A DNA stretch of 52,142 bases, the filler included, from Dirinaria sp. TL-2023a (taxonomy: Eukaryota): NCBI GenBank assembly GCA_051941275.1. It is 2 parts of 2 records of this genome, joined end to end, with 100 filler letters (N's around TTAATTAATTAA, not from the genome) between each part and the next. Parts side by side here need not be neighbours in the genome. Positions count along the whole stretch, not along the records: positions 1 to 26,069 come from JAVEBF010000165.1; 1 more part is not named here. One strand, 5' to 3'. A program made the translations under genes and the position numbers. Shown here in pieces: positions 1 through 26,169 of the stretch; within the stretch, counting starts at the first letter, position 1; each line of letters starts with the position of its first letter. The notes under the pieces were generated by a model. The model was not told where the DNA came from, ran no database searches, and worked only from the letters and a program-made list of their open reading frames with translations.

Positions 1-801
1 CCCAAATCTTCCAATACTTTTCCCAACCACAAATATATATTCCCTAGAAACGCCTGCTTCGCTACTACCTCAAATCTTCCTTCCTACCTGAATGAAGCTT
101 CTTCGTCGGTCGGTTGGGAATAACAATTCTAAAGATTACGGAACGTTCGTAGTTAGAAGCTTGTTTCGTTTGGATTACCTCTCCAAACTTGATATGCAAC
201 CGGCTAAGCTAGAGCGGTGGTTTAGGGGATATGTTTATGCTGCTGCTGCTCATTATTGAAAGAGAGAGGATACGTTTGGTTGGGGTGATGCTGGTTATGG
301 GGTAAGGGATTGGTGGTATTATATCTTTGTCTATATATATAAGGTAGAAACTGGGGAGGTGGATATGGGCTTGAAGAGGGTTTAGATAAGATTGAGATGA
401 TTTATTACCTACATCCTATGGGCCTTGTATTCATTTGTAGGTCGGAGGGGTGCTTTGATGATATAGCAATTCATTGGTAGCGCAGCACATCATATAGATT
501 ATAGGAATTGCAGATGTTGTATAGTAGTAGCTCACGGTATCACCACCACCTTCACGCATTCAGAGAGTGATTTATAATGGTATCACTCGGGTTGTGAGTG
601 GCAGATATGAAGTATGGTATAGCATTTCTTTTGAGCCTCGAGAGCATTTAGTTGGCCACTGGTGTCTAGCTGCTCGACCGTGTTCAAGTGGTGATTGCTG
701 AGCGATTGGAGCTGACATATCGACCCCGGACACCGCCCTTTGACAGGACCACCGAGCTTCCGAATGAGCCAGCATACAAGCCACTGGGCTACCCTCCCAA
801 T

Positions 802-1824
802 TCATCCTTTCTTATTCGTGCCTCCAGAAAGAGCGATTTTACTCTCCTCGTATACCAGGAACGTGACCCAGGTGCTCGGCAGAACCCTCAACAGGTTCGG
901 GCCTAAGCCCTTGTAGAAGCCACTGAACCCTTCTCGCCTCCAGGTTTGAGCAATGACATCCCTCGCGCTCTTGTACGTCCGGTCGGCGTCGTAGGTTTGC
1001 AGCCTTGCTCTGACCACTTGGTACGGATACGTCGTGCTGCCGGCGAAAACCTTCGCCAGTCCACTCAGGACGAGGAAATCCACAGCATTAAGAGCATGCT
1101 GACCTTCTGGCTTTGAGCGAGCTCGATATATCTTAAGCTGTTCGTAGGCCATGAATTGTAGCGCTCCGTGGGATACGCCAAAAAGAGAGGGCGAGAGGCC
1201 GCGATAGAAGCCGCGAATGCCATCCGATTTATATATCTGTCGCGTGCCATCGACGATAGAAGTGTATGCGCCGGGATGTGAAGAAGGTGTCGAGAGCATG
1301 CGCGTCTTGATTACCCATATCGGATTGGTACAGATGGTGGTTAGTGCTCCTGTAACGCACATTAGTGACAATCTTCCAATGCGCGATCGAACTTGATATC
1401 TTTTTACGTACCTGCTGTAGCGGAACCTAGGAAATAGTCATAGGATAGCAGTGGATGGTGGTCTCCGTGCAAATATTGGAGCCCATCCTTGAGCCTCCCA
1501 TACCACAAAAAGTACAATGACCAGCTCACGGAATTGCCGATTATGTTGGGAGTGAGACCGCGGTAGAAGCCCGTCAAGAGGCCTTCATTTCGAGCGATAT
1601 CACGAGTAATCCGGAGAGAGCTTCCAAGCGCAGATGATGAAGTCCGGTCAACTACGAATTATCAACCTTTCGTCTTGCGATAGCTCGAGCTTGGTGACAT
1701 TCGTACCTTGTAACCTTGTTTTGATTAGATCTAGAGGATGAGCTACTAATGTTGACGCTATGCCAGCTGCGAATCCTGCGAGCGTCTCAACAAGTGGCTG
1801 AGGAAGCGCTTCGCTATTGTTCAT
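802..1824 (-). CDS. FLX1: Mitochondrial carrier (SLC25), FAD/folate carrier type; 3 exons (1824-1707, 1651-1412, 1349-802)
   Basis: Three carrier repeats with PxD/W/QxxK/RxR signatures (HPLDLIKTRLQ, NPIWVIKTRM, YPYQVVRARLQ). GFYRGLSPSLFGVSHGALQFMAYEQLK is typical of the Flx1/SLC25A32 group. GT-AG introns join the frames. Confidence 0.85.
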
Positions 1825-2847
1825 CGCATGATGACTTTCATGTCGGAAGGGTGGGAAAACAGAACAGCGAAATCGATACAATTTAATTTCTGTGATGTCA
1901 TTTGACTAAATATTCACATTGAGTAAATTATTTTACAAGGCTAAAAACCCCAGCAACACAGTCAGCAACGGGAGTTTGTGCACCGGTCACTATTGCTTTC
2001 ATATATGCACCATTCCCTCTCTGGCGTTTTCCGGAATCCCACACCTTGCCTTACTCTGGAGCTGGATGAATATTGTTCACCCAGGTATCTCTATTGAGCC
2101 TCTTGAGACGTATGAGCGGCGATGCAGATATTGTACCGGTGCTGTAATGCCCAAACCCCCACAGTCCTTCTCCAATGGACCGAGCAACTTGCACACACAG
2201 ACCTCTCCGAACAGCATGGGCTATGCCAACGGTGATAGTAGTCTATTTTCCATCAGTAAATCGAAAGCAGCAACCAAACATAGTACCACATACCTGATAA
2301 ATGGTGGCTTAGGATCGCTCCGAGTGTACCCTTCAACAATAAGTCTTGAACTTCTCTCGTAAGCATTGCTTCATGCATTCGTACCAATATATATGATCAA
2401 GGGTAGGTAGCCACTAGGAAGATCAGTGCATGTATAGGATGATGAGTCGCGTGAAAGCATACTAATGGATAGCGACTCGTGAGATTTCAATGACCTTCGT
2501 GATTCTCTCCTGGATGATATATTAGTGCAGGCAGTTGGGTATGGTAATAATGATTGGACACTACCTTTGTCTCCTCTGACAGTGAGAACATCATTGCAGT
2601 ATAGGTAGCTCGGTGTACAGACTTTGCTTATTGGCGTGAATTGACGAGGAGCATCTGTATCGAATGTCGTGCTTGGGCTGCGAGTTATGTGAGCTTTTCT
2701 TTAGGTACATACAGTATGATAGTAGTAAGCTCCGAAGTCCCAAGCTTGCAAAAGGCCGAGGTTCAGCCGGACTACCTTCTAGCGGCACGAGCTATCATCA
2801 TACGAAAGGGCAGCATTAATATTGACATCTCATCGCACTAGTTGAGC

Positions 2848-3975
2848 ATGGCGCATATTGTAGGCGTCCAAACTTCAATGCTGCAACTGCTTGGGTCGCA
2901 AGCATGGTGTCAAAGAGGTCGTGCATTCATTTCTGCGCTACCTACACGACATAGACCGCGCGTATCGAGAACCTCCCCATTCACCAGTAGGCCGAGCTTT
3001 GCTACCGATCGGAGGCTGCAAGATCAAGATGAATATCAATCTTATGAAGCACGACTGTGAGCACGACGCAAGCATTGCAGCCTGGCGGTCGATAGCTAAC
3101 CAGCCAAGGCCTAAACCACCCACATATCCGCCACGGGACCAGCAGCAACAGACATCATCGTAGGACTGAAGCTTATCTTGACTCGTCACACAGCTTACAT
3201 AAATGCAGGCAAGCTCTAGAGACGCCGCCATCAATCGCTACTGGTGATGTGACTGGAAGTGAAGAGCCAACCTCTGCAAGTCTCCAGGAACGGAAAACCG
3301 AAAATGACACCGAAGATGAGACCGAAGACGAGGACCAAGACGGAGTTCGTATGCCCCGAAGTGTTCAAGCAATCTACCTCAAGCCGTTACGGAGAACGGC
3401 AAAGTACAACCTGCCAGTGTGTGATTTACAAATACGTTCCTACAGCGTCCTGAACGTCGAATTTATGGCCGACTTCGCACTCAGAGCTGCATACTTCCTG
3501 CATCTACCCGCTAGAGGACCGGTGCCTTTACCACGTATCACGGAGCGGTGGACTGTGCCTCGGAGTCATTTTGTGCACAAGAAAAGCCAGGAAAACTTTG
3601 AACGGATTACTATGAGGCGGCTGATACAAATCCACGATGGGCATCCGGAGACTGTTCAACTGTGGCTGGCCTTTATACGAAAGCACTCGTACTATGGAGT
3701 CGGTATGAAAGCTAACGTCTGGGAATACGAAAAGCTAGGTATGTTCGCCATTCTCCTCTGTGGTTCTCGTGCTAAGCAATCGTTCAGGAGTCGGCAAGAC
3801 AATGGACGTCAGCCTGGAGAACCTGAAGAAGACGCTTGAGCCGAAATGGGCGCATTTTGGAAGGCGAAAGAATCTAGATACATCAGAGAAGGTGTACCAG
3901 ATGATGACCAGTGATACATTTCGGCAAACTTCTGACGCTCCATTGAGGGACGATGGTATTACTCCTCAAACCTGA
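2848..3975 (+). CDS. RSM10: Mitochondrial small-subunit ribosomal protein S10 (uS10m); multi-exon, 5' exons approximate
   Basis: ORF 3249-3839 contains the S10 core (GPVPLPRITERWTVPRSHFVHKKSQENFERITMRRLIQI). An intron starting at 3739 (GTATGT...GCTAAG...CAG) leads into the last exon, ending TGA 3975. The start codon is uncertain (2848 or 2878). Confidence 0.85.
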
Positions 3976-4297
3976 GAAGGGGTTCCATCGAACATTGCAT
4001 TACACGGTGTTTCTGTGCACATTCAGCGTATTTAAGTCACATATCTTGCATAGCGAGCAATTAGTTCCTGTACTCTAATTAGCCTTGGCCAACGGATATT
4101 CTAGACTTAGATAGCTGACCTAAAGCACCATATGAATAAATACAGAATTGTGAAATAACGCCCCTTTTTATGTATCGCCATTGGGTGGCGGAAAGGAGAA
4201 AATGATCACGTGCGCTCGGGCAACTAGTAAAGCGCGCTACTGAAAATCATTCCCGGGCCAGCAATCTGATGCATACAACCCATGCTAGAGGTCAGCG

Positions 4298-5727
4298 ATG
4301 ACCTCGTGTGCTAATGTTGCCCGCAAAAGTCATGCTGTATCGCTTGCTGCCTGTATCAGGCCTGCTGTCGCACCTCGAGGGCTGAGATGTTTTCCTCAGA
4401 CTCGCCACTTTGCCAACCCCAGCATCAGAGAACTGTCCAGAAGAACAATCTTTTCGGGCATACAGCCGACAGGAGTCCCTCACATAGGCAACTATTTGGG
4501 TGCTCTGCAACAATGGGTGAAAATGCAGCACGAAAGCGGCCCAGAATGTAACCTTATCTTTTCCGTTGTGGATCTACATGCAATCACTCTCCAACAAGAC
4601 GCCGAGCAACTGAGGAAGTGGAAGAAAGAATCTCTTGCGGCTCTTCTAGCCGCTGGGTTGGATCCTGAACGTTGTACGATCTTCTTTCAATCAGATGTAC
4701 GAGCAGAAAATTGTTTTGGTTGACAAAGTTCTTCGTTACTAAGGGAAGTACGATCAGGTACCGTATCACGCGGAGTTGATGTGGATCTTGGGGTGTACTG
4801 CGTCTGTTGGATATCTCTCACGGATGACACAGTGGAAGGTACGATGGCCTAATGTGTACGCTCGCTGGCGAGTCTTGTCATCGTTTTGTTTATTTGGTTT
4901 TAGAGTAAGCTCGCGTTACCAGAAAAAACATCAGTTCACGAATCTGCCGCGAGAGCAAAATTGAAGCTTGGGCTTTTCTCTTATCCCGTGCTTCAGGCTG
5001 CAGATATCCTGCTATATGGGTAAGGCATTCCTTTGCGTCTCAAGTTATATGTCTGCTACACCCACGACTTTCCGAGCATAAATTTATTGAATTTTAGAAC
5101 CACACACGTCCCTGTCGGTGAGGATCAAATCCAGCACTTGGAATTTGCTAGAGAGTGCGCGGGAAATTTCAATGCGGCTTATGGCGAGGTTCTCATCCGT
5201 CCCGAAACCCTTCTCTGTAAGTGGCTTCGTGAGCTATTCCTGCGTATAAGGCCAACCTTCATGCAGCACCGGCCAAGCGTATCATGTCACTCAAGGAGCC
5301 GACGGCAAAGATGTCCAAATCTCATGCCGATCCTCGCTCTCGTATTCTAATCAGTGACAGCACTGAGGAGATAGCAATGAAGATTAGGCTTGCTCTGACC
5401 GACTCCCTCGCAGGCATCACATATGAGCCAGAGAAGCGTCCAGGCATAGCAAATCTACTGTCGATCATGAGTTATCTAGACAGCAAGGGCAGATCCTGCG
5501 AAGAGCTCGTCCAACTGCATAAGGACACGAGTATGCGCGGATTCAAGGACGAGGTTGTAAGGACTCTTGATCGTGCACTTGGCTGTATGAGGGAGCGGTA
5601 CACCTACCTCATGAAGGATGCGCAGAGCGACTACCTAGAAGAGGTTGCTCGGAATGGGGCGCTTAGCGCAAGGACGGTGGCAGAACGCACTATGTTGGCC
5701 ATCAGGCGGGCAGTGGGTCTCTCCTAG
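4298..5727 (+). CDS. MSW1: Mitochondrial tryptophanyl-tRNA synthetase; multi-exon
   Basis: IFSGIQPTGVPHIGNYLGA (HIGH motif), YPVLQAADILLY, VPVGEDQIQHLEFARE and KMSKS. The N-terminus resembles an Arg-rich mitochondrial presequence. Confidence 0.93.
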
Positions 5728-7168
5728 CCCTCTGCTAGGGCATCCACTGTGATTGCAAATGGAACGGTTCAGGCTTCCACAGCTCCCCCATGCCGTCCAG
5801 ATCCCACCAAGGAAGAGGTTGAACTCGTCGAAAACAGAAACGACATCACCATCAGCCATGGAGAATGGCCAATGAACAAGCAGTGGTGCCATTGTCAGGT
5901 ACCTTGATCCTTCAATGCTTACCTCCAGGTTCGAATACCAGTACTTGCCTTTCGAAAGCCGAGGCGACGGCCTCCCGGCGCGCACAATAGAGTGACTTGG
6001 CAGAGAACAGGACCAGGTTCGTGTGGAGCTTGTTGTTGCTGTCCGGGGCAAGCTTGGGCGATTTGACAGAGATTGTGGGTCAAAGGATCCTCCTCCCTCG
6101 CTCAAGACTCAGCATGCATGCATTTTGTTATCTCCACTGTACACGACAAGGGACAGAAAATAAAAGGATTGCTGCCGTGTATGTAGAGTGGTTCAAGGCG
6201 GGTGGTACGTACGTCGGCAAGCTCATGGCACAGTTCTGCGGGTGAACCTAGCGAAGGTGCCTGAATCGCTAACGATCACACGTAGCTTTTGCGATCGATG
6301 GTCGCCAGGGACACACCAATGATGATAGGGTATATTTCTCCATCTGCAAGTTCGCCCAAGCTGCCGCTCTACTTTCACAAAAGACCATAGCAGTGCCTTG
6401 TTATAGATGATTCTCAATCCCGCACCGTTTCTTCGAGAGAAAAAGGACTTGCGCGAAGGGCCATCGCCGAAAGGGCAGCCAATCCCCCACCCTTTGGGCG
6501 CGAAGGTTCTCGAAATAGGTGTGCTGCAGAACACGTAGACCCTTGGGCATTCCCATTCGTCGCGGTGATGATGCATGTCGTGCAGCTTTCCGATTCTGCA
6601 ACTAGCTTAATAGTCGACTTATTGCGAATCTACCCAAAAACCCAAAAAAGTATATATAATAGAAGCATACATAGAAAGCGTTTTCTGCCCTTGGCACATT
6701 ACATATAATGTACGTCAGCGCTGTTGCTTTCATGAGGAAAACATCCGTAATCTGAAAGAGAGAGAGTAACTTCAATTATTGCCTACCAAAACAATCCTAT
6801 AAATCAATTAAAAAACAGAAAACACGAAACACATCCATCCTCGAGAATCCCAAACCCGGCGCCAACGCCTAAAACTGCCCTACCCACCGGCCGCTTACAC
6901 CCCACCCTGATCTACCCGCGCCTGCCCAGCCCAGCCCAGTGAGCCATTGTCCATTGAGAAACTCTTAAAGTCTTCAACCCTCCCCCACCAGGGCAAGAAA
7001 AGCCTTACATCCCTAAATCCCTATTCGCTCCCCCCCAGCGCGCGCGCCGCACAAAATATCTGGATCCCATCCAAATCGAGAAAAGGGAAAAAGTGTTGAA
7101 GAAGTGGGAAAAAAAACAAGAAAGGCGCACACCACACAAAACAAAAACAACCCAACATCCTTACAGTG

Positions 7169-7186
7169 CATACATACATACATACA
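7169..7186. repeat. (CATA)n microsatellite in the A-rich region upstream of HAP5
   Basis: catacatacatacataca read directly. Confidence 0.7.
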
Positions 7187-7691
7187 GTACATTACAAAAT
7201 TATCCACACCAACAAACAAGCGCTCCAGTCATACGCGGCTGTCTGCAAACGCGATTTCGATTTTGGTGTGGGCACATTATTATTATTATTGATCCCATCA
7301 TCTCTCTTGCACCGTTCATAGGTGGTTACTACGCGGTCTCTTCGCACCAGCCCTAGGTACATACAGTACATACAGGACCTTCCTACAACCTACTTACAGT
7401 ATCTGCTCATTTCACCCACCTTACCTAACCTCACCTTTTCTCCGAACACCGTCGCCCACCACACAAAAAAAAAGTCGCTCGCTCGATCGAATTGCAGGAT
7501 TATTTTTCTCCAGCCATTCTTTTCAGCAAGCCCACTGTTTGCTTACGAAATCAAGTTACTTGATTGTTCAGATCAATTGCGCGCGTGCCGGGAACAAGAA
7601 AGAAAGAGAGAGCGTGTGTGTATATGAGATAACCGCGCGGAGAGAAGAAAGGAAAAAAGAGGGAGAATCACAAAATAACAGAGAAGAAAGC

Positions 7692-9057
7692 ATGGAGCAG
7701 AAACCACCTGGCGCCGTCGCTGGGGCCACGCAGGCACCGCAGGCAGGACGTCAGCAACCGGTTTACGATCCGAATAATGGCGGCCATTTCGGTATGTTCC
7801 TCTTTTTTTTTTTTTTGAGCTACTAGATGTCTTACTCTTATGGATATAATTGGTCAAGGTTTTTTGGAGTGGAGGGGGGAAACAAAGGGAGAGTTGATGG
7901 CTAATTGAAGTGGTGCTGTAGGCGCAAGCCAAGCTGTATGTATAATACCTCCAAAGACAGGTCAATTGAAGGGCGATGGGATTACACGGAGCTGACAATA
8001 GCTGCAGATGGCGACTCAAGGGTTCGCGCCTGTACCGGAGCTGTATCAGGGTACATGGGCCAATGTACGTTAATCGCATCCCCAGCAATTACCTAGATGA
8101 AGTAGAGCCGGGTTCCATTGACAGATGATTGCATATAGGTCAACCAAGGCCTGGTAGGCAACTACCGCGACATCCTGACCACCTATTGGCAACACACCAT
8201 TAGCCAACTCGAGACCGAAGCCCACGACTACAAGCTACACCAACTACCTCTCGCGCGCATCAAAAAAGTCATGAAAGCCGACCCTGACGTCAAGATGATT
8301 TCCGCCGAAGCGCCGATCCTGTTCGCCAAAGGCTGCGATATTTTCATCACCGAGCTCACGATGCGCGCTTGGATCCACGCGGAAGAGAATAAGAGACGGA
8401 CGCTGCAGCGATCCGATATCGCGTCGGCGCTGGCAAGGAGCGATATGTTCGATTTCTTGATCGACATCGTGCCGAGGGAGGAGGCGGCGACGAAGCGGAC
8501 GAGTGGGCCAGGTGGTGGCGCAACGCCAGCCGCTGGGGCCGGGTCAGGGATGATGCCGCCACAACCTCAATCTATGGCCCAGCCAGGCCAGGCGCCAGGC
8601 GGTGCTGGCCAGCAACAGCATCACATGGGCGGCCACGAAAGCTATGGGTTGGCGAGCGGCCAGATGCAGCAAGAGCCAGAGTACGGCCGACCACAGCCGG
8701 GGATGTACGCACCACCAGTGCCGAACGATCCGTCATACGGGCAGCACCAAAACCAGATCTTCGAGGGCATGTACGGGTATCCGTCCATGAACACTCAGCC
8801 GGTGAGTCGAGTCCCCGACCCCTATTAAGGGCTTGAGAGCGGCCTAGCCGGCGCGGTTCTCTGCTGCGAGAGTCATCAAGTGCTCATCAACCCGACCAAA
8901 CAGACTCACTGACCGGTATTGCCGCACGCAGATGTATGGTGTGAACCAGAGGGGGCAGGTTCCACCAGGAGGCCAGGATCCAGGACATACTTACCAGAGA
9001 CATGACGGGGAAGGCGATGCGGATGCGGAAGGTGATAGGGATTACGAAGTTGGCTGA
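7692..9057 (+). CDS. HAP5: CCAAT-binding complex subunit Hap5/HapE (NF-YC); 5 exons including a 14-nt micro-exon (7922-7935)
   Basis: Histone-fold [45 protein letters not shown]...[10 protein letters not shown]...[12 protein letters not shown]. The spliced N-terminus reads MEQ...[40 protein letters not shown]. The last exon is 8932-9057. Confidence 0.93.
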
Positions 9058-9479
9058 CCTTAACGATTGATGATGCTTGCATGTACACCTTGTTTAGATC
9101 CATAGTGCCGGCCGTCTATAGTCGAGTCATGTGTAGCGAACATCATGCTATGTAGCTAGCGAGCATCTGGATGCTTCAGATACCCCAATCTTGCACCATT
9201 ACTTGTTCCAACTTTTCGCATCGTATGGCGTGAGACCACTCTGTAGGTCTAGCATAGATGTGAGAGAATCTCGTCTGGGTTTGGGGTTGCGGCTAGTTGA
9301 GAGTTGACTGCCCATGTGCAGCCCGTCAAGCTTGCGCGCTCGGAGCCGAGATATATTGCAGACCTCAGAGACCTGTTATGCCTGAGGCATGCAGGGCTCT
9401 GGACTGTTAGATCATTGCCAAGAGTCTGACTGCTAGAATGGGTTTTCGAGGAGGGAGCAAAATCTTCCGATGAACTATT

Positions 9480-12029
9480 TCACTTGATGCCGAACCGCGA
9501 CGATAGTGTGGAGTATTTGTCCGTCTTTGCCGGACTTTGCACAGAGTGAGTGAGTCTGCCATGCGTCAGCAAAGTCTGCATCTGGCCGAGAAGCAGTTCC
9601 CAATGCCTACTTCTCAAGCAACACCGGCCCGTTCATTGCATCTACTCTGCCGTATTTCTTATTTCTCGTCGAGACGTCGTAGAATTCCTCGGAATTCTCG
9701 GCTTGCATCAGGGCAACTGTCTGCTGCAGCTCCTCCAAGTTCTGCCCCAAGATCGGGTTCCCGAGCGTATCCACGAACTCAGTGAGATAACGGACGTCTC
9801 TGGCTAGAGCGCTGACGCCATTGGGATTAATTCGTTTTACATCGGGTGATAGAGGTAGTCCCTGTTGTTGAACATTTAGCAAATGGCAGACGCCAAAAGG
9901 AGGGGGCGAGCCCGGACCAGTATCATCGTAGCTGCATGGCTCAAAGCATCAAAGTATATCAGCTCTTTGATTTCAGTCGGGAGGCCCAAGAGCACGGAGC
10001 CCATGATATTCGAAAGATATGTGGTCAACGTGGACATATATTCGCTAGGTTTGCTACTATCGTAACCGGGAGCCAGCCTACAAGAACGGTCATCAGCGTT
10101 AGTGGCCGGGCTGTAACACCTACAATAAAAACACAAAATAAGGGTTTAAAGAGCCTACCAGTCATACTCCGCCGTCTCGATTAGATCATCGATCTTGGAG
10201 TTAACCAATTCAAATATTCGCTTTTCTGCTGTCTTCTTATGACCGCGGAAGTCCTCGGTAGCTCTCAATACAATGTTTGCGCCGGCAGATGCTGTTGATC
10301 TGGCAGCAATAAGTAGCTGTTCAAGCTCTTGACATGCGATCTCAAAATGTTCGAGGTTGATTAGGATCTGAACAATTTGACCAAGGTACTGAGAGCTCAG
10401 GCGTTCGACCAAGGAAAAACAAACTTTCTCGGATAATAATTCATCTAGCGAAGCATGCAATGTCTCGTCGATGACACGAGGATGCTGGAAATGATCGTCA
10501 GAGAAGAAGTAGAATTGGTTTAGGAAATTCCGAATATCGATACAGCACAGCGGATACATCTGGGAGAAAGGCAAAACTAAGGGGAAATTCAGCTCTTCCC
10601 GTGGCCTGTCGGGCGTATACCAGCTGACATTGACCACCTTGTCGTACTCATCAGGCTTATTGATCGGCATGGGCATGTAATCGTCAGTCGATACGATCTC
10701 GTGGAAGTCATCGCTAAATCTCTTCTTCAGGAGCTCTGCGTATTTTTTGAAGAGCGTCAGGAGGAAAGCGTCAAGAGCGCCGACCGAGTATCCCCAGGAG
10801 TCCATAGTTTGGACAAACAAGGCAATGACACCTTTGATGCGAAGTACCATCTCAGCATTATCCACTTCGTGCAAAGCATTGGAGATGAGCGTAATGGCCG
10901 TTTGGCACATCGAGTCCCAAAGCTCATCGACATCCGCAGCGGAACGTAATTGAGGCGCTCGTTCCATTGTTGCCTTCTCCACGATCGCAAAGCCAGCTAT
11001 ACCTTCTAGAAGTTCATTCAGGCTTGCTCCTTCAGCATCTACCAAGGTCACAGAAGCTGGCATGAGGAGCTCTTTCTGCTGTCTTCGAGTCGCAGCATAC
11101 TCGGTCCGGAATTTATTAGTTTCGCCAAGAGCATCATGGATATGAATACATTCGAACAGAGGCGTGAAGTCAACCTGCACCTCCTCGTTATCAAGCACGC
11201 TGAACTCCTCTGTCTCATCGGATACGAGCTCGATGGCCGAATTGAGCTTGAAATTGCCCAGATACTCTTTCGCTTCTGTGCGCTCTCTGTGCCTTGTCCT
11301 CCTCTGCTCTGTATGGTAGAAAGCTACTTCACCGAGAAATTGAGAGCTCTCACGAATACGGTATAGCCAGGTATTGAGATCAGTCATGACTGCCTCAGCA
11401 ATAAGCTTCTTTGTCGCAGGTACAGACTTCTGAATCATGTCCGCGATCTTGTACTGGGTAACCTCCTTCAGGTGGACATTCTGAAGCTCATCAAGCGCTC
11501 TCAAAGCCGAGTAGTAATTTGTCTTGCCCAGTAGGTCGTGGACCTGGTTGGCCAAGCGCAGAACTTCCAGACAATCCTTGAGCGCCTGCGTGGCCTCATC
11601 AATATTCTGTCGCACTCCTCGCGACTCCACCAGAGCTTTTTTCTGTTCCGCAAGCTTTTCGGTGCTGGATTGGATGGATTGGTTAAGATTCAAAATTTCT
11701 GAAGTCAGACTGACAGTGCCCTCCCGGACCTGGAGAAGCTGATTGACGGATGTGACGAAGCCTTGATGATTTGTATTACATATTTTCTCAATTTCGGCTT
11801 CGCGATCGCTGGAATAGTGGGTAAGGGATTGCAGTAGCTGCTGCCCGCGACCGCCTTTGCTTGCATCTCGAATCGCTGGAATTAGTTGGTTTAGATACTC
11901 GTTGTCTGAGGGGGACTGGACTGTCTACAAATTGACTACATCAGCATTGCGAAGCAAATGCTTTGTTGCTCTCATTACCTGCTGTACAACATAATCGAGC
12001 TCACTGCGAGGATCAATGACGGAAGGCAT
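9480..12029 (-). CDS. SEC15: Exocyst complex component Sec15; 4 exons
   Basis: The 512-aa ORF has the Sec15 motifs VDFTPLFECIHIH, LPFSQMYPLCCIDIRNF and KIDDLIETAEYDW. The first exon is MPSVIDPRSELDYVVQQ at 12029. The last exon ends SSRFGIK* at 9480. Confidence 0.92.
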
Positions 12030-12566
12030 TCCGAGGAACTACACAGTGCAAGAATGGGTTTTATGCTCGGCTGTAGCACTTCATTCTTGGATGGAAGTGG
12101 TGTCTAAGGGTATATCGAGGGCTAATTTTGGTTAACCCAGCCGTGCTCATCCATGGTCTGAGGATGGATGAGATGTAAGGTAATGTATGGAATAAAATGA
12201 TACTTACATGTACGTAAGATAGCTATCAGGCAGGCAATTGAAGCACACAAACCGCTTTCTCTCCTCTGGCGTCTAATCTGGAGCTAAAAGTCTTGGCTGA
12301 TTTGGCGCCAAGACACGGTCTAAGCATGTGACTGCTTTTTCGCTCCAGCTCTTCAGCTTCATACTACTTACTGCGTGTATCGACAATATGAAAAATAATC
12401 GGAAGCAACCCTTCATATCGCTCCTTCCAAAGTGAGTGTACAGCTGCTTCATAACCCATGTGCATGTAATCTCCTTGCAAAACAGAATTCCAGCTAGATC
12501 TTCACAGCTCAGCGCGCTCCCCATTCATCACCTCATGTCTTTACCAGACATATCAGTGGTTTCCTT

Positions 12567-13322
12567 CACGATCACCGCTTTGCAACCACTCGTCCGTTGA
12601 TCTGGTAGATGGTATGCATCCTTCCCTGGCTGTGGCCAAAGGATCACAGGCTGCGGACACGGAAGTCGAGGTAGTACACGTCCCCCCCTCTGCCCCGGTG
12701 GACTAGGTGAGGTATTCACGATCACCGCTTTTCAACTGCTCCCCAAATGATCTCATAGACTGTATGGATCCTTTCCTGGCTCTGGCCAAAAGATCACAGG
12801 TTGCGGACACGGAAATCAAGGTAGTACACGTCCCCCTTGCCCGGGTTGAATAGCTGAGGTATTTTCTCCACGATCACCGCTTTCCAACTGCTCGCCAGTT
12901 GATCTCATAGACTGTATCCATCCTTCCCTGGCTCTGACCAAAGGAGCACGGGCTGCGGACATGGAAATCGAGGTAGGACACGTCCCCCATGCCCGGGTTG
13001 ATTAGCTGAGGTATTACTTCACGATCACCGCTTTTCAACCGTTTGCCGATTGATCTCATAGACTGTATGGATCCTCACCTGCCGCTGACCAAGGGAGCAC
13101 AAGCTCCGGACATGGAGATTAGGGTAGTACGCGTCCGTATGTGCTCGGGCTGTCTGGCTGAGGTATTTTCTTCACGATCACCGATTTTCAACTTCTTGCC
13201 CGTTGATCTCATAGACTGTATGCCGTATGGATCCTCACCTGCCGCTGACCAAGGGAGTACAAGCTCCGGACATAGACATCAAGGTGGTACGCGTTCGTAT
13301 GTGCCCGGGCTGTCTGGCTGAG
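12567..13322 (+). repeat. Tandem array of five diverged ~150-153 bp units
   Basis: The anchor CACGATCACCG starts at 12567, 12717, 12869, 13020 and 13173. Shared blocks: TGATCTCATAGACTGTAT, GGACA(C/T)(G/A)GA and TGAGGTATT. Confidence 0.95.
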
Positions 13323-13783
13323 TTCTTGCCGTCGTGACGACAAAAACTTAGGGCATGGGTCCACCGTCCGGCCGAATTCGTCGATGGTGATGATGGGAAT
13401 TTGCGGTGATCAGGTGAATAGTGGGTCTGGGCTGGATGCTGGAGGGGGTTGTGGTTGGTCCAGGCAGAAAGCCACTTTAGCAGATTCCCATTTCTTCCAG
13501 AGATAAAGTGACAAACCTTCATCCTCGTTTCCTTTCCCTTCTCTTCTTCCATTCCCTTCCCACTGCCACCCTCCACTGTACAAAAGCCAAACCGGTTCGA
13601 CACTTCTGTCGAATTGTGTCTGTGTTGATCCTCTCTTCCAGTGAAGGCAGCAGTCCCAGCTGCATTCATTATCACCTGCTTCGACTGCCGATTCAGGGTT
13701 CTTCGTCCCGCTCCACGATCTACACCGCTTCGTTTTTGTTCCAAGTTCGCCTTGTCAAAGATACTTCGTCCTCGCTAATCAAC

Positions 13784-16705
13784 ATGACGAGGGACACCAA
13801 CTATCGCCGCATTCTTGTAGGCAGCCCTAGTTCTTCGGACCCTGTTCCTGGATCTTTCCAGAACACTCCAGAGACTCAACCAACAGCCATCTCTCCCGAG
13901 GAGGTTCGTTCAGAGCAGCGTGTACCCAAGGCCGGCATTTCCAGACAGAGTGTGCCACCGGCCTTCGGTCTCCATGTTTACCCTATGCCAGGCCCTGGCA
14001 ACCATGTTAGTAATATCTCTGCTTCGAATTCCTTAGACCCGTTTGTTGTATCTTCTCGTGCTGCTGCAGCTGGGTACCAAGCCACCGGGCTGCCTAAGCC
14101 TTCTCCTTCTGCTAGCAGCTTCACTCCTTCAACTGGAGTTCAACCTGTGAACTTGCCTGCCTCTGCTGGTAACAAGCACGGCGAGGACAACAGCGATCAT
14201 CATTCTGCTACGCCTAGGCCACGCGCTACTTTAAGCAGCTTCTTGCCTTCCCAAGTGGGATCTTCGGCTGCCGTTGAGGCAGCAGCGTCTGCAAATGCGC
14301 AGCCTCATCCTGTTGGCTCGTCGGAATCGAATGCTTTTGATAAGGTAGGGCACTTCTCCTCGGATTGTAACACGTCGAGGTACCTCATGCTGGGCCGTGT
14401 TCCGCGAAATATCTCCTTAGCAGAGCTCGAGTCATTGATCGGGGTAAGCTGTTGTCCCATAGCCCCCAGCAGCTGGTCACTTACTAAATGAGCTCAGCAA
14501 AACTTCTTTCCCTCGTTGAAACACCTGGGACTCAACGAGCTCGCCGTTACTGAGACGGTCTACGCCAGCTTCTCCGATATTCGAGATACCTTGAACGCGT
14601 ACACCAAAGTACAGGCAGCTCGACCCGGGTGGACCTTGGGTCTCATTGGCACTATTCGGTACTTCGAGAAGTATTATCCAGGTTTGACGCTCCCTCCCTT
14701 GGTTTACGAAGGCCAAGTGTCTGTCAAAGTTGAGTACGGTGGGCCGGACTCTTGCTTCGATGTTGCCAGCATTGGCGTCATCGTGAAAGAGATCCTGGAA
14801 AACTACGGAGATGTCAACGCCATGGAGGTAACTGAGATTAACTCTCCAGCTGTAACGTTCCGTGCGGAGTATTATGATAGCGTTGCGGTCAATAGTGCAT
14901 TGACGTCGCTCCAAGGGTTCAGAATTGCGGTTAGTTCTAGTGGCATGCTAAATTACTAGAGAAGACTAATAAGGTATGAGTAGGGCTGCACAATTGGCAT
15001 CACAAATTATGGGACGGGAGATGCCGGCCTCATCTCTCCATATGGAGGTCAAGCCCCTTTGATCGTAGGTCACGATGGCACGGGACTCGAGCATGCAATG
15101 GGGAACATGAACCTGGGTGTTGGTCAAGCTACGTATGGTCAAGCTACGTATGGTCATAACTATGTGGCCTCACCCCTAGTCTCGCCTTACTTCACGCCTC
15201 CAGCGGCCAATCGTTCTTTCGGCTATCATAGGGAGCTAAATAGCCAGCAAGTGCCCTCACCTCTGGTACTCCAGAAGACAAACTTCAACGAGCCAGGATC
15301 CGCCGAGAGCTCGCCATGGAGCCCCTTTTTCAGCCCGTACGGGGATTATGGACTACAATCTCCACTCTGGACCCCGTACACCCCTGGTACTATTGGCCAA
15401 GAGCGTGGAACTCCCGTGATGTCACCATACCCCCCGATCTACCCATATCAACAGCGTACACCAGTGAGATTCGTTGGCCGCTCTCCCAACGAATACCCAT
15501 CGAGCCACCATAATTTTGTCGACGTTGAACGTATCCGCCAGGGCTTGGATGTTCGAACAACTGTATGTTACCAAACACGTGTGGCCGAGAAGCCTACTGA
15601 ATCCCACTTTTATAGATTATGCTGCGCAACATTCCAAACAAAATCGACCAGGTAAGTCTTCTCCTTCCGCTCTCGGGAACCAACCTAACGGCGCCAAAGA
15701 CCATGCTTAAGGAGATCGTCGACGAGACGAGCCATGGTAAATATGATTTCATGTACTTGCGTATTGGTAAGTCTCATCTGCGACGAATGAGAATTGGACT
15801 ATACAACTAACTATTGGCAGACTTCGCCAACAATTGCAAGTAAGGAGCTCCTAGGAAATCGGGCATAGGATTTGCCGGGACTAACGCGGACAGTGTTGGC
15901 TATGCCTTCATCAATTTCGAGGACGTGAGTAGAGCTCTCGCCGGGGCCAGCTTCAGACGCTAACTCACAATAGCCTTACTTCGTCATTGATGTCAGTCAA
16001 ACGTGTTAGAAGTGTGCAGCCTCATGCTGACAGTCTAACAGTTCATGAACGCTAGAGCAGGTCAACGCTGGTAAGAATCGTTCCTAGTCGCTGTGCCAAA
16101 GAACTCGCGTTGACTTGAAGAAGGAACCGTTTTAGTAGCGACAAGGTTGCGGAGATCTCTTACGCAAGTAAGACATCGTCTCGGCACCTTTTTGCTGATT
16201 GGCTAACGTGTTACAGCTATCCAAGGTAAGGATTGTTTAGTCCAGAAGTTCCGTAATAGCTCTGTGATGCTCGAGCATCCATCTTTCCGGCCAAAGGTAT
16301 GGACCGCTTATTGATGCGTCGAAGATGTGGCTTATATGCGCAGATCTTTCACACCGGCACTGGTCCGTTGGCAGGGACGGAAGACTCCTTTCCCGGTCCG
16401 GACAATCCATCCAAGATGCGTAGGTCCGTGGAGAATGCTGAGCATATTGGTAAGATATCATCCCCTAGCGACGCAAGTGCAATCTCTAATGGATGGGTAT
16501 ATAAGGCCTGTTCGCACCACGTGTTGGTCAGTCCTACCGCGACGAGCAACGTCGTCGGCGTTCCCAGTGGGACCGTGGTACGCGCATGGCTGCAATGGAT
16601 GATGCGTATGACCTCGCACATCCTACTCACTACTATCCGGGCCCGACTCTACGGTACCGACGCTCTACGCCATACCTTCCCACCTTTGCAGAGTACCATT
16701 CGTAA
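13784..16705 (+). CDS. mei2: Mei2-like RNA-binding protein (C-terminal Mei2-type RRM); about 13 exons
   Basis: The spliced C-terminus reads DVRTTIMLRNIPNKIDQTMLKEIVDETSHGKYDFMYLRIDFANNCNVGYAFINFEDP...WNRFSSDKVAEISYATIQGKDCLVQKFRNSSVM, the Mei2 RRM3 signature. Degenerate RRMs lie upstream. Stop TAA at 16703-16705. Confidence 0.88.
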
Positions 16706-26069: not shown

Positions 26070-26169
26070 NNNNNNNNNNNNNNNNNNNNNNNNNNNNNNN
26101 NNNNNNNNNNNNNTTAATTAATTAANNNNNNNNNNNNNNNNNNNNNNNNNNNNNNNNNNNNNNNNNNNN
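26070..26169. other. Artificial contig spacer: 44 N + TTAATTAATTAA + 44 N
   Basis: The 12-mer at 26114-26125 has stop codons in all six frames and is centred in exactly 100 nt. Confidence 0.97.

Follow-up and report, generated by a model that had tools for sequence, protein, structure and literature searches.

A five-unit tandem array of intron- and exon-like sequence in the spacer upstream of a mei2-like gene in the lichen fungus Dirinaria

Introner-like elements of fungi are near-identical introns of one genome, which lie dispersed and are flanked by unrelated exons. Unlike these elements, the array described here occupies one locus and has exons that were copied together with the introns; it consists of five tandem intron+exon-like units of ~151 bp upstream of a mei2-like gene, in a 52,142-nt stretch of DNA from Dirinaria sp. 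TL-2023a (hereafter the window; assembly GCA_051941275.1). With tandem exon duplication and intron gain by tandem genomic duplication, as described in the available part of one account (PMC3443670), it shares local head-to-tail copies, new splice junctions and an AG|GT at each junction; in the AGGT model set out there the whole duplicated unit is removed as an intron, whereas here an intron of ~51 nt is copied along with its exon, and the host is non-coding. Apart from the splicing of all copies, the array has the testable features of tandem exon duplication: homologous units arranged head to tail, each with a donor, a branch-like site and an acceptor.

A second group of described systems concerns RNAs at genes of sexual development. 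IRT1 upstream of IME1 in S. cerevisiae, and nam1/byr2, rse1 and rce1/ste11 in S. pombe, are sense-strand non-coding RNAs just upstream of such a gene (PMC12566771, in the part available), and a sense-strand non-coding transcript is likewise found here directly upstream of the inferred mei2 promoter. Unlike these cases, as far as that part of the source goes, the array RNA is spliced, carries lineage-specific tandem cassettes and comes from a spacer that also borders a housekeeping gene. LUTIs (long undecoded transcript isoforms), in the portion of PMC8153250 available, resemble the locus in that ATG-rich upstream sequence is transcribed before a meiotic gene which probably has a proximal promoter, but a LUTI runs through the coding sequence, and no such span occurs among the array contigs. 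The S. pombe RNAs meiRNA and mamRNA/snR107 are also non-coding, contain repeated motifs or an intron and are tied to Mei2, although the available parts of PMC9486875 and bioRxiv 10.1101/2024.10.03.615557 describe them as binding the Mei2 protein from other loci; snR107 is a 107-nt intronic C/D snoRNA, whereas the array introns measure 47-93 nt and lack C/D boxes. The role of Mei2 in S. pombe is covered in the accessible part of PMC13321354. Our literature search, which left most subscription journals outside, returned nothing on the array or on RNA upstream of mei2 in lichens.

The array spans 12559-13322 on the plus strand. An initial annotation made from the sequence had described five tandem units starting at 12567, 12717, 12869, 13020 and 13173, with spacings of 150, 152, 151 and 153; a repeat-family search reproduced starts and spacings, and Tandem Repeats Finder, proposed there as a check, reported a period of 152 with 4.4-4.5 copies (scores 778 and 633). 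The GAG|GTATT donors at 12712, 12859, 13011 and 13163 and the CATAG| acceptors at 12758, 12910, 13061 and 13214 were all found at those places, with introns of 47, 52, 51 and 52 nt and inner exons of 100, 100 and 101 nt, as claimed; for unit 1 itself there is a doubtful donor only (CA|GTGGTT at 12556). The annotation was right that units 4 and 5 are the closest pair, while its gradient towards a most diverged unit 1 is not the main pattern. The units instead form two blocks, namely block A (12559-13010), made up of units 1-3 (12559-12711, 12712-12858 and 12859-13010; 82-87% alike), and block B (13011-13322), made up of units 4 and 5 (13011-13162 and 13163-13322; 90% alike). The blocks are 73-79% alike, with a tree support of 1.0 for the pair 4-5, and divergence between units amounts to 10-27% overall. 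Unit 5 carries a 7-nt duplication that is missing from the RNA sample of a close relative, in which the five-unit order is that of the window. A sixth unit in the flanks was rejected, as the score of the upstream flank was reached by 74-233 of 300 shuffles and that of the downstream flank by 13-129 of 300. Only positions 1-26069 belong to the contig with the array (C165), followed by an N-run at 26070-26169 with short AT-rich ends, so that different DNA makes up the right half of the window.

The mei2-like gene (13784-16705, plus strand; 12-intron model, 766 aa) matches protein P0003 of a relative at 68.5% identity over 391 aa, and its best protein match belongs to the lichen fungus genus Dirinaria. 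Its C-terminal RRM3 matches PF04059 (E 7.8e-14) and S. pombe Mei2 in the PDB (E 3.4e-18), in line with its earlier naming as a Mei2 homologue, and its ATG at 13784 lies 462 nt after the array end at 13322, close to the roughly 460 bp given before. The database protein P0001 (538 aa) ends within RRM3 and omits 14345-14443, a coding stretch with conservation among relatives (57% to L007). The mei2 coding sequence also holds a 15-bp in-frame duplication at 15121-15156 that is lacking in X4, a DNA run described below. On the other side of the array, the 5' part of sec15, which encodes an exocyst subunit, was identified by Pfam on the minus strand (10155-12029), divergent from mei2; its intron at 11925-11978 is spliced in all three RNA runs. 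For comparison we used sec15 loci on metagenome contigs, taking the best 80 of 168 confirmed ones; many of the 80 are near-duplicates and hence not independent. At least 4 kb of upstream sequence was available at 48 of the 80; 38 of these 48 have a mei2 match, divergent in 36, and judged from these sequences the divergent sec15/mei2 pair is old.

CT tracts mark transcription starts in filamentous fungi. At 13503-13564 on the plus strand, an ATAAAG and, right behind it, a CT-rich tract with 45 of 50 pyrimidines form the likely core promoter of mei2. This ATAAAG, at 13503, is the only one in 12000-13800, and ATAAAGT together with the CT tract aligns in L007, L009 and L047, all of them array-less; at eight more distant loci the CT tract is present with ATAAA far off or missing, and the ATAAAG element is clear only in the closest group. 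Of the 21 upstream ATGs in 12381-13783, 12 lie in the array and none in 13510-13783. The lack of ATGs in this last stretch, together with the conserved ATAAAG/CT element, suggests an ordinary short-leader mei2 mRNA that is independent of the array, and that mei2 has its own promoter downstream of it.

RNA evidence came from three runs (X1, X2 and X3) of one lichen sample, a close relative ~97% identical in sec15, while X4 is one probable DNA run from a more distant relative, ~85-89% alike at the locus. All run data are contigs, which carry neither strand, start nor end, and the RNA depth is 2-11. RNA-library contigs of the close relative cover 12381-13488, these limits being those of the contigs and not of the RNA, and GT..AG joints point to the plus strand. 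In an X1 contig the end of exon 3 is joined to AG|ACTG, corresponding to intron 3 (13011-13061, 51 nt, GT..AG); the acceptor may instead be that of unit 5 at 13214, since the same 30 nt follow both acceptors in the RNA sample. An X3 contig matches 12552-13001, continues with seven different letters and resumes at 13102. These letters stand in place of 13002-13008, and an AG occupies 13009-13010 as well as 13102-13103, so the contig joins the end of exon 3 to 13104 and lacks an alternative intron of 93 nt (13011-13103, plus strand) that has an AAG acceptor within exon 4 and a GCTGAC branch (13084-13089) 16 nt from its end. The joined piece agrees with the end of unit 3 in 23/28, with that of unit 2 in 22 and with the other units in 14-17, and contigs 4 and 14 place it at unit 3; the RNA sample's intron 3 sequence itself is absent from the contigs. 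Two different GT..AG joints from one donor (13011) to two AGs are best explained by plus-strand splicing, and at least one unit junction, the one that forms the boundary of blocks A and B, is spliced on the plus strand in the close relative. The earlier description of the array as spliced cassettes on the mei2 strand therefore holds for donor 13011 (X1 and X3), but predicted introns 1 (12712-12758, 47 nt), 2 (12859-12910, 52 nt) and 4 (13163-13214, 52 nt), all on the plus strand, appear only unspliced in the RNA contigs; as contigs drop rare forms, low-level splicing of these three is possible.

Some further candidates for splicing evidence were set aside. Contigs that start exactly at the acceptors (13060 and 13213) are explained by a 30-nt word common to units 4 and 5, and X1 record 5 (13024-13089), considered as retained intron 3, shows three differences that are those of the sample's intron 4, leaving intron 3 retention unsupported. 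None of the contigs shows a joint in which exactly one unit is missing between two AG|GT sites. Further upstream, intron-like stretches lie on the plus strand at 12432-12485 (GTGAGT..CAG) and 12556-12608 (GTGGTT..TAG), both unspliced in the RNA contigs; read by eye, their splicing would open a frame of ~59 codons from an ATG at 12388 into unit 1. As to the signals of the array introns, donor position +5 is T in 4/4, compared with G in 12/12 mei2 donors, a CTRAY branch occurs in 0/4 versus 8/12 mei2 introns, and the branch-like A stands just 9 nt from the intron end. By the standard of this genome these splice signals are weak.

Copy number in related species, the comparison that the annotation had called for, is five units in the close relative, two in X4 and none in the 80 sec15 loci. 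A single X4 contig runs across the whole locus and has 304 nt there against 756 in the window, which equals two units. The unit profile was found in none of the 80 loci at E up to 10, and 15 spacers searched alone gave only E values of 0.9 or more. At the four closest loci (88-89% Sec15 identity) the sec15-mei2 distance is 714-740 nt shorter, a difference close to the array length; over 27 loci this distance ranges from 2667 to 6504, and with 3638 the spacer of the window is not unusually long. The simplest history, read from unit similarity, would be that one unit gave A+B, after which A came to be present three times and B twice, and the A/B junction, the one seen spliced, would be the oldest. 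Loss in the X4 lineage is possible too, since block A units diverge from each other about as much as X4 does from the window.

Divergence from the RNA sample was set against synonymous sites of sec15, of which 24/257 differ (9.3%). In block A 36 of 450 sites differ (8.0%; Fisher p=0.58 against sec15 synonymous), in the stretch before it 13 of 160, and in block B with the downstream flank 17/380 (4.5%, p=0.02) and 7/183 (p=0.036), the last two in overlapping stretches and uncorrected tests. Block A thus diverges at the synonymous rate and looks neutral, whereas the promoter-proximal part, block B plus flank, with roughly half that rate, may be mildly constrained.

We consider it probable, with moderate confidence, that the array arose by near-neutral tandem amplification of an intron+exon piece inside a weakly spliced, upstream non-coding RNA. 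The sec15-mei2 spacer would give rise to such an RNA, transcribed on the strand of mei2 and probably launched outward from the promoter region of sec15, its start and end being putative; it would be separate from the ordinary mei2 mRNA, which would start at its own putative promoter near 13503-13560. In this RNA a piece of ~151 bp, one weak intron and the next exon, would have duplicated once into types A and B, followed by a second round that brought A to three copies and B to two, presumably in this order and by unequal crossing-over or slippage. Most of the copied introns would splice poorly, and we propose that the copies were tolerated because the RNA encodes nothing, which would leave them near-neutral. 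The array, its two blocks, the two versus five units between lineages and the plus-strand splicing at donor 13011 in the relative are direct observations. Counting against near-neutrality are the divergence of block B below the synonymous level and the junctions, since GAG|GT and CATAG are intact at 4/4 of them despite the divergence of the units; weak splicing is also challenged by the +5 T donor of a sec15 intron (GTAATG), which works in all three RNA runs. Two further points count against this account: its RNA contigs stem from one sample of a relative, and the ATAAAG element is clear in the closest group only.

The same RNA might have a function in cis. Transcription over the mei2 core promoter could shut mei2 off in the vegetative thallus, as IRT1 does with IME1, the repeats lengthening the RNA or adding splice sites that tune its processing; we regard this as unlikely, if worth keeping in mind. 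Position and strand match the IRT1 layout as given in the available part of PMC12566771, the neighbour is a Mei2 homologue, the RNA contigs reach 13424-13488, beside the promoter-like element at 13503, and it is the promoter-proximal block B that is less diverged than synonymous sites. Nevertheless, the array is absent from all 80 other sec15 loci though the gene pair is kept (36/48), interference needs no repeats, and the literature found does not establish what Mei2 homologues do in lichens.

The initial annotation had proposed that the array forms a spliced 5' leader of mei2 or else a separate transcript, and of these the second fits better. As a leader, the array would be part of a long spliced mei2 isoform that its 21 upstream ATGs render poorly translated, in the manner of a LUTI, beside a short-leader mRNA. 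The array is on the same strand, 462 nt from the ATG, with one donor spliced, and an ATG-rich stretch followed by an ATG-free one is what a repressed long isoform and a translated short one would be expected to show (PMC8153250, in its available part). On the other hand, a contig that joins the array to mei2 exon 1 was not found in the three RNA runs, where at a depth of 2-11 a contig gap proves nothing, only unspliced forms of three of the four predicted introns occur in the contigs, the uORFs do not encode conserved peptides, and the promoter-like element lies downstream of the array. The array-side contigs listed stop at 13424, 13463 and 13488; bins in 13614-15221 are without a contig in all three runs, and mei2 cover consists of 165 nt (15398-15562, X2). 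We do not count this sparse cover against a leader, as it stems from a single sample whose contigs cannot show ends or absence; at most it suggests that there is little DNA in the libraries. The leader is as doubtful to us as interference at the promoter. A broader proposal, that a spliced upstream RNA, newly evolved, keeps mei2 off and either enters the promoter (IRT1-like) or continues through the gene as an ATG-loaded isoform (LUTI-like), with the increase of cassettes from two to five acting as a repression dial, seems slightly more doubtful still.

That the units encode a repeated small peptide or a peptide precursor is very improbable. An ATG stands at the same place in four of the five exons, with ORFs of 29-84 aa, and between units 1 and 2 one other frame, of 22 codons, shows five synonymous and two replacement changes; this candidate was rejected by a six-frame null (P=0.91), under which the array has no coding signal in any of the six frames and no frame is open in all units with a synonymous excess. 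In the ATG frame of block A pN exceeds pS, exons of 100-101 nt shift the reading frame, the RNA sample has lost the unit 3 stop, and none of eight short array ORFs has a Pfam match. Taken together, these results largely refute a peptide.

We give equally little credence to the units being structured RNAs, snoRNA- or miRNA-like, or a multimerised decoy that binds Mei2 as meiRNA does. U-rich and UUC words occur in every intron, and UUC(U) is bound by the RRM3 of S. pombe Mei2 (PMC9486875, available part), but it can be found in any polypyrimidine tract. No exon had a fold better than that of shuffled sequence (z-scores from -0.5 to +2.0 in 10 of 10), a covariation test gave a two-sided change in 1 of 40 consensus pairs, C and D boxes were not found in the units, and Rfam has no match at gathering level over the array, the sole weak hit being sR17 (E 6.2) on the opposite strand. 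The DSR words TTAAAC and TCAAAC do not occur in 12381-13500. Outside the units, a C/D-box-like motif at 12480-12535 on the minus strand matches Rfam sR2 (E 0.0064) far below gathering and at chance level (7 of 100 shuffles); it was not found in the spacers of the closest relatives.

As for copies elsewhere, a profile search of the window returned exactly five units (E 1e-45 to 1e-49; next match E 1.9), and when the entire array and unit 3 were searched by BLAST in the own genome, one of the checks proposed at the outset, this locus alone was returned, such counts being lower bounds. The unit motif had 0 matches in metagenome contigs, and the array did not match phage records. A transposon remnant, a dispersed minisatellite family or an assembly artefact is the least credible account: the assembly is fragmented into 3105 short contigs, yet an independent sample has the same unit order, BLAST gave no dispersed match, the profile found no units in the 600 kb searched with it, a terminal inverted repeat was not found at the array, and the longest word common to any two units is 33 nt.

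Direct repeats were sought in 80 stretches of the own genome, 800 kb or 2.9% of 27.7 Mb. Of 12 clusters of nearby direct repeats, one has many copies with a unit of at least 80 nt over ~700 bp. It is a second intron+exon array, at L114:1458-2169 (G000:C2:31458-32169), with seven 52-nt introns that are 88-98% alike and exons of 32-75 nt. Its introns carry strong signals (GTAAGC..ACTGAT..TTAG) and are unrelated in sequence to the array at mei2; it lies in a small multi-exon transcript whose spliced ORFs reach at most 96 aa, and a diverged two-copy relative is located ~2 kb off (C2:29177-29412). Other local direct repeats with intron-like matches were noted at L093:4263-4751, L113:9168-9392, L123:923-1501 and L114:5928-6772. 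One array per 800 kb scales to ~35 per genome (95% range ~1 to 190), and with a second array in the sample, the one upstream of mei2 is uncommon but not unique in kind.

Together, the two arrays suggest that new introns arise by this route repeatedly in the present lichen genome. On its likeliest reading, the array upstream of mei2 offers a clean and datable case in which a spliced, non-coding unit of exon and intron multiplied in tandem, with none, two and five copies at three levels of relatedness. If, on the other hand, the unlikely proposal of a repression dial were true, the number of cassettes could affect the readiness with which a lineage forms apothecia in place of vegetative reproduction.
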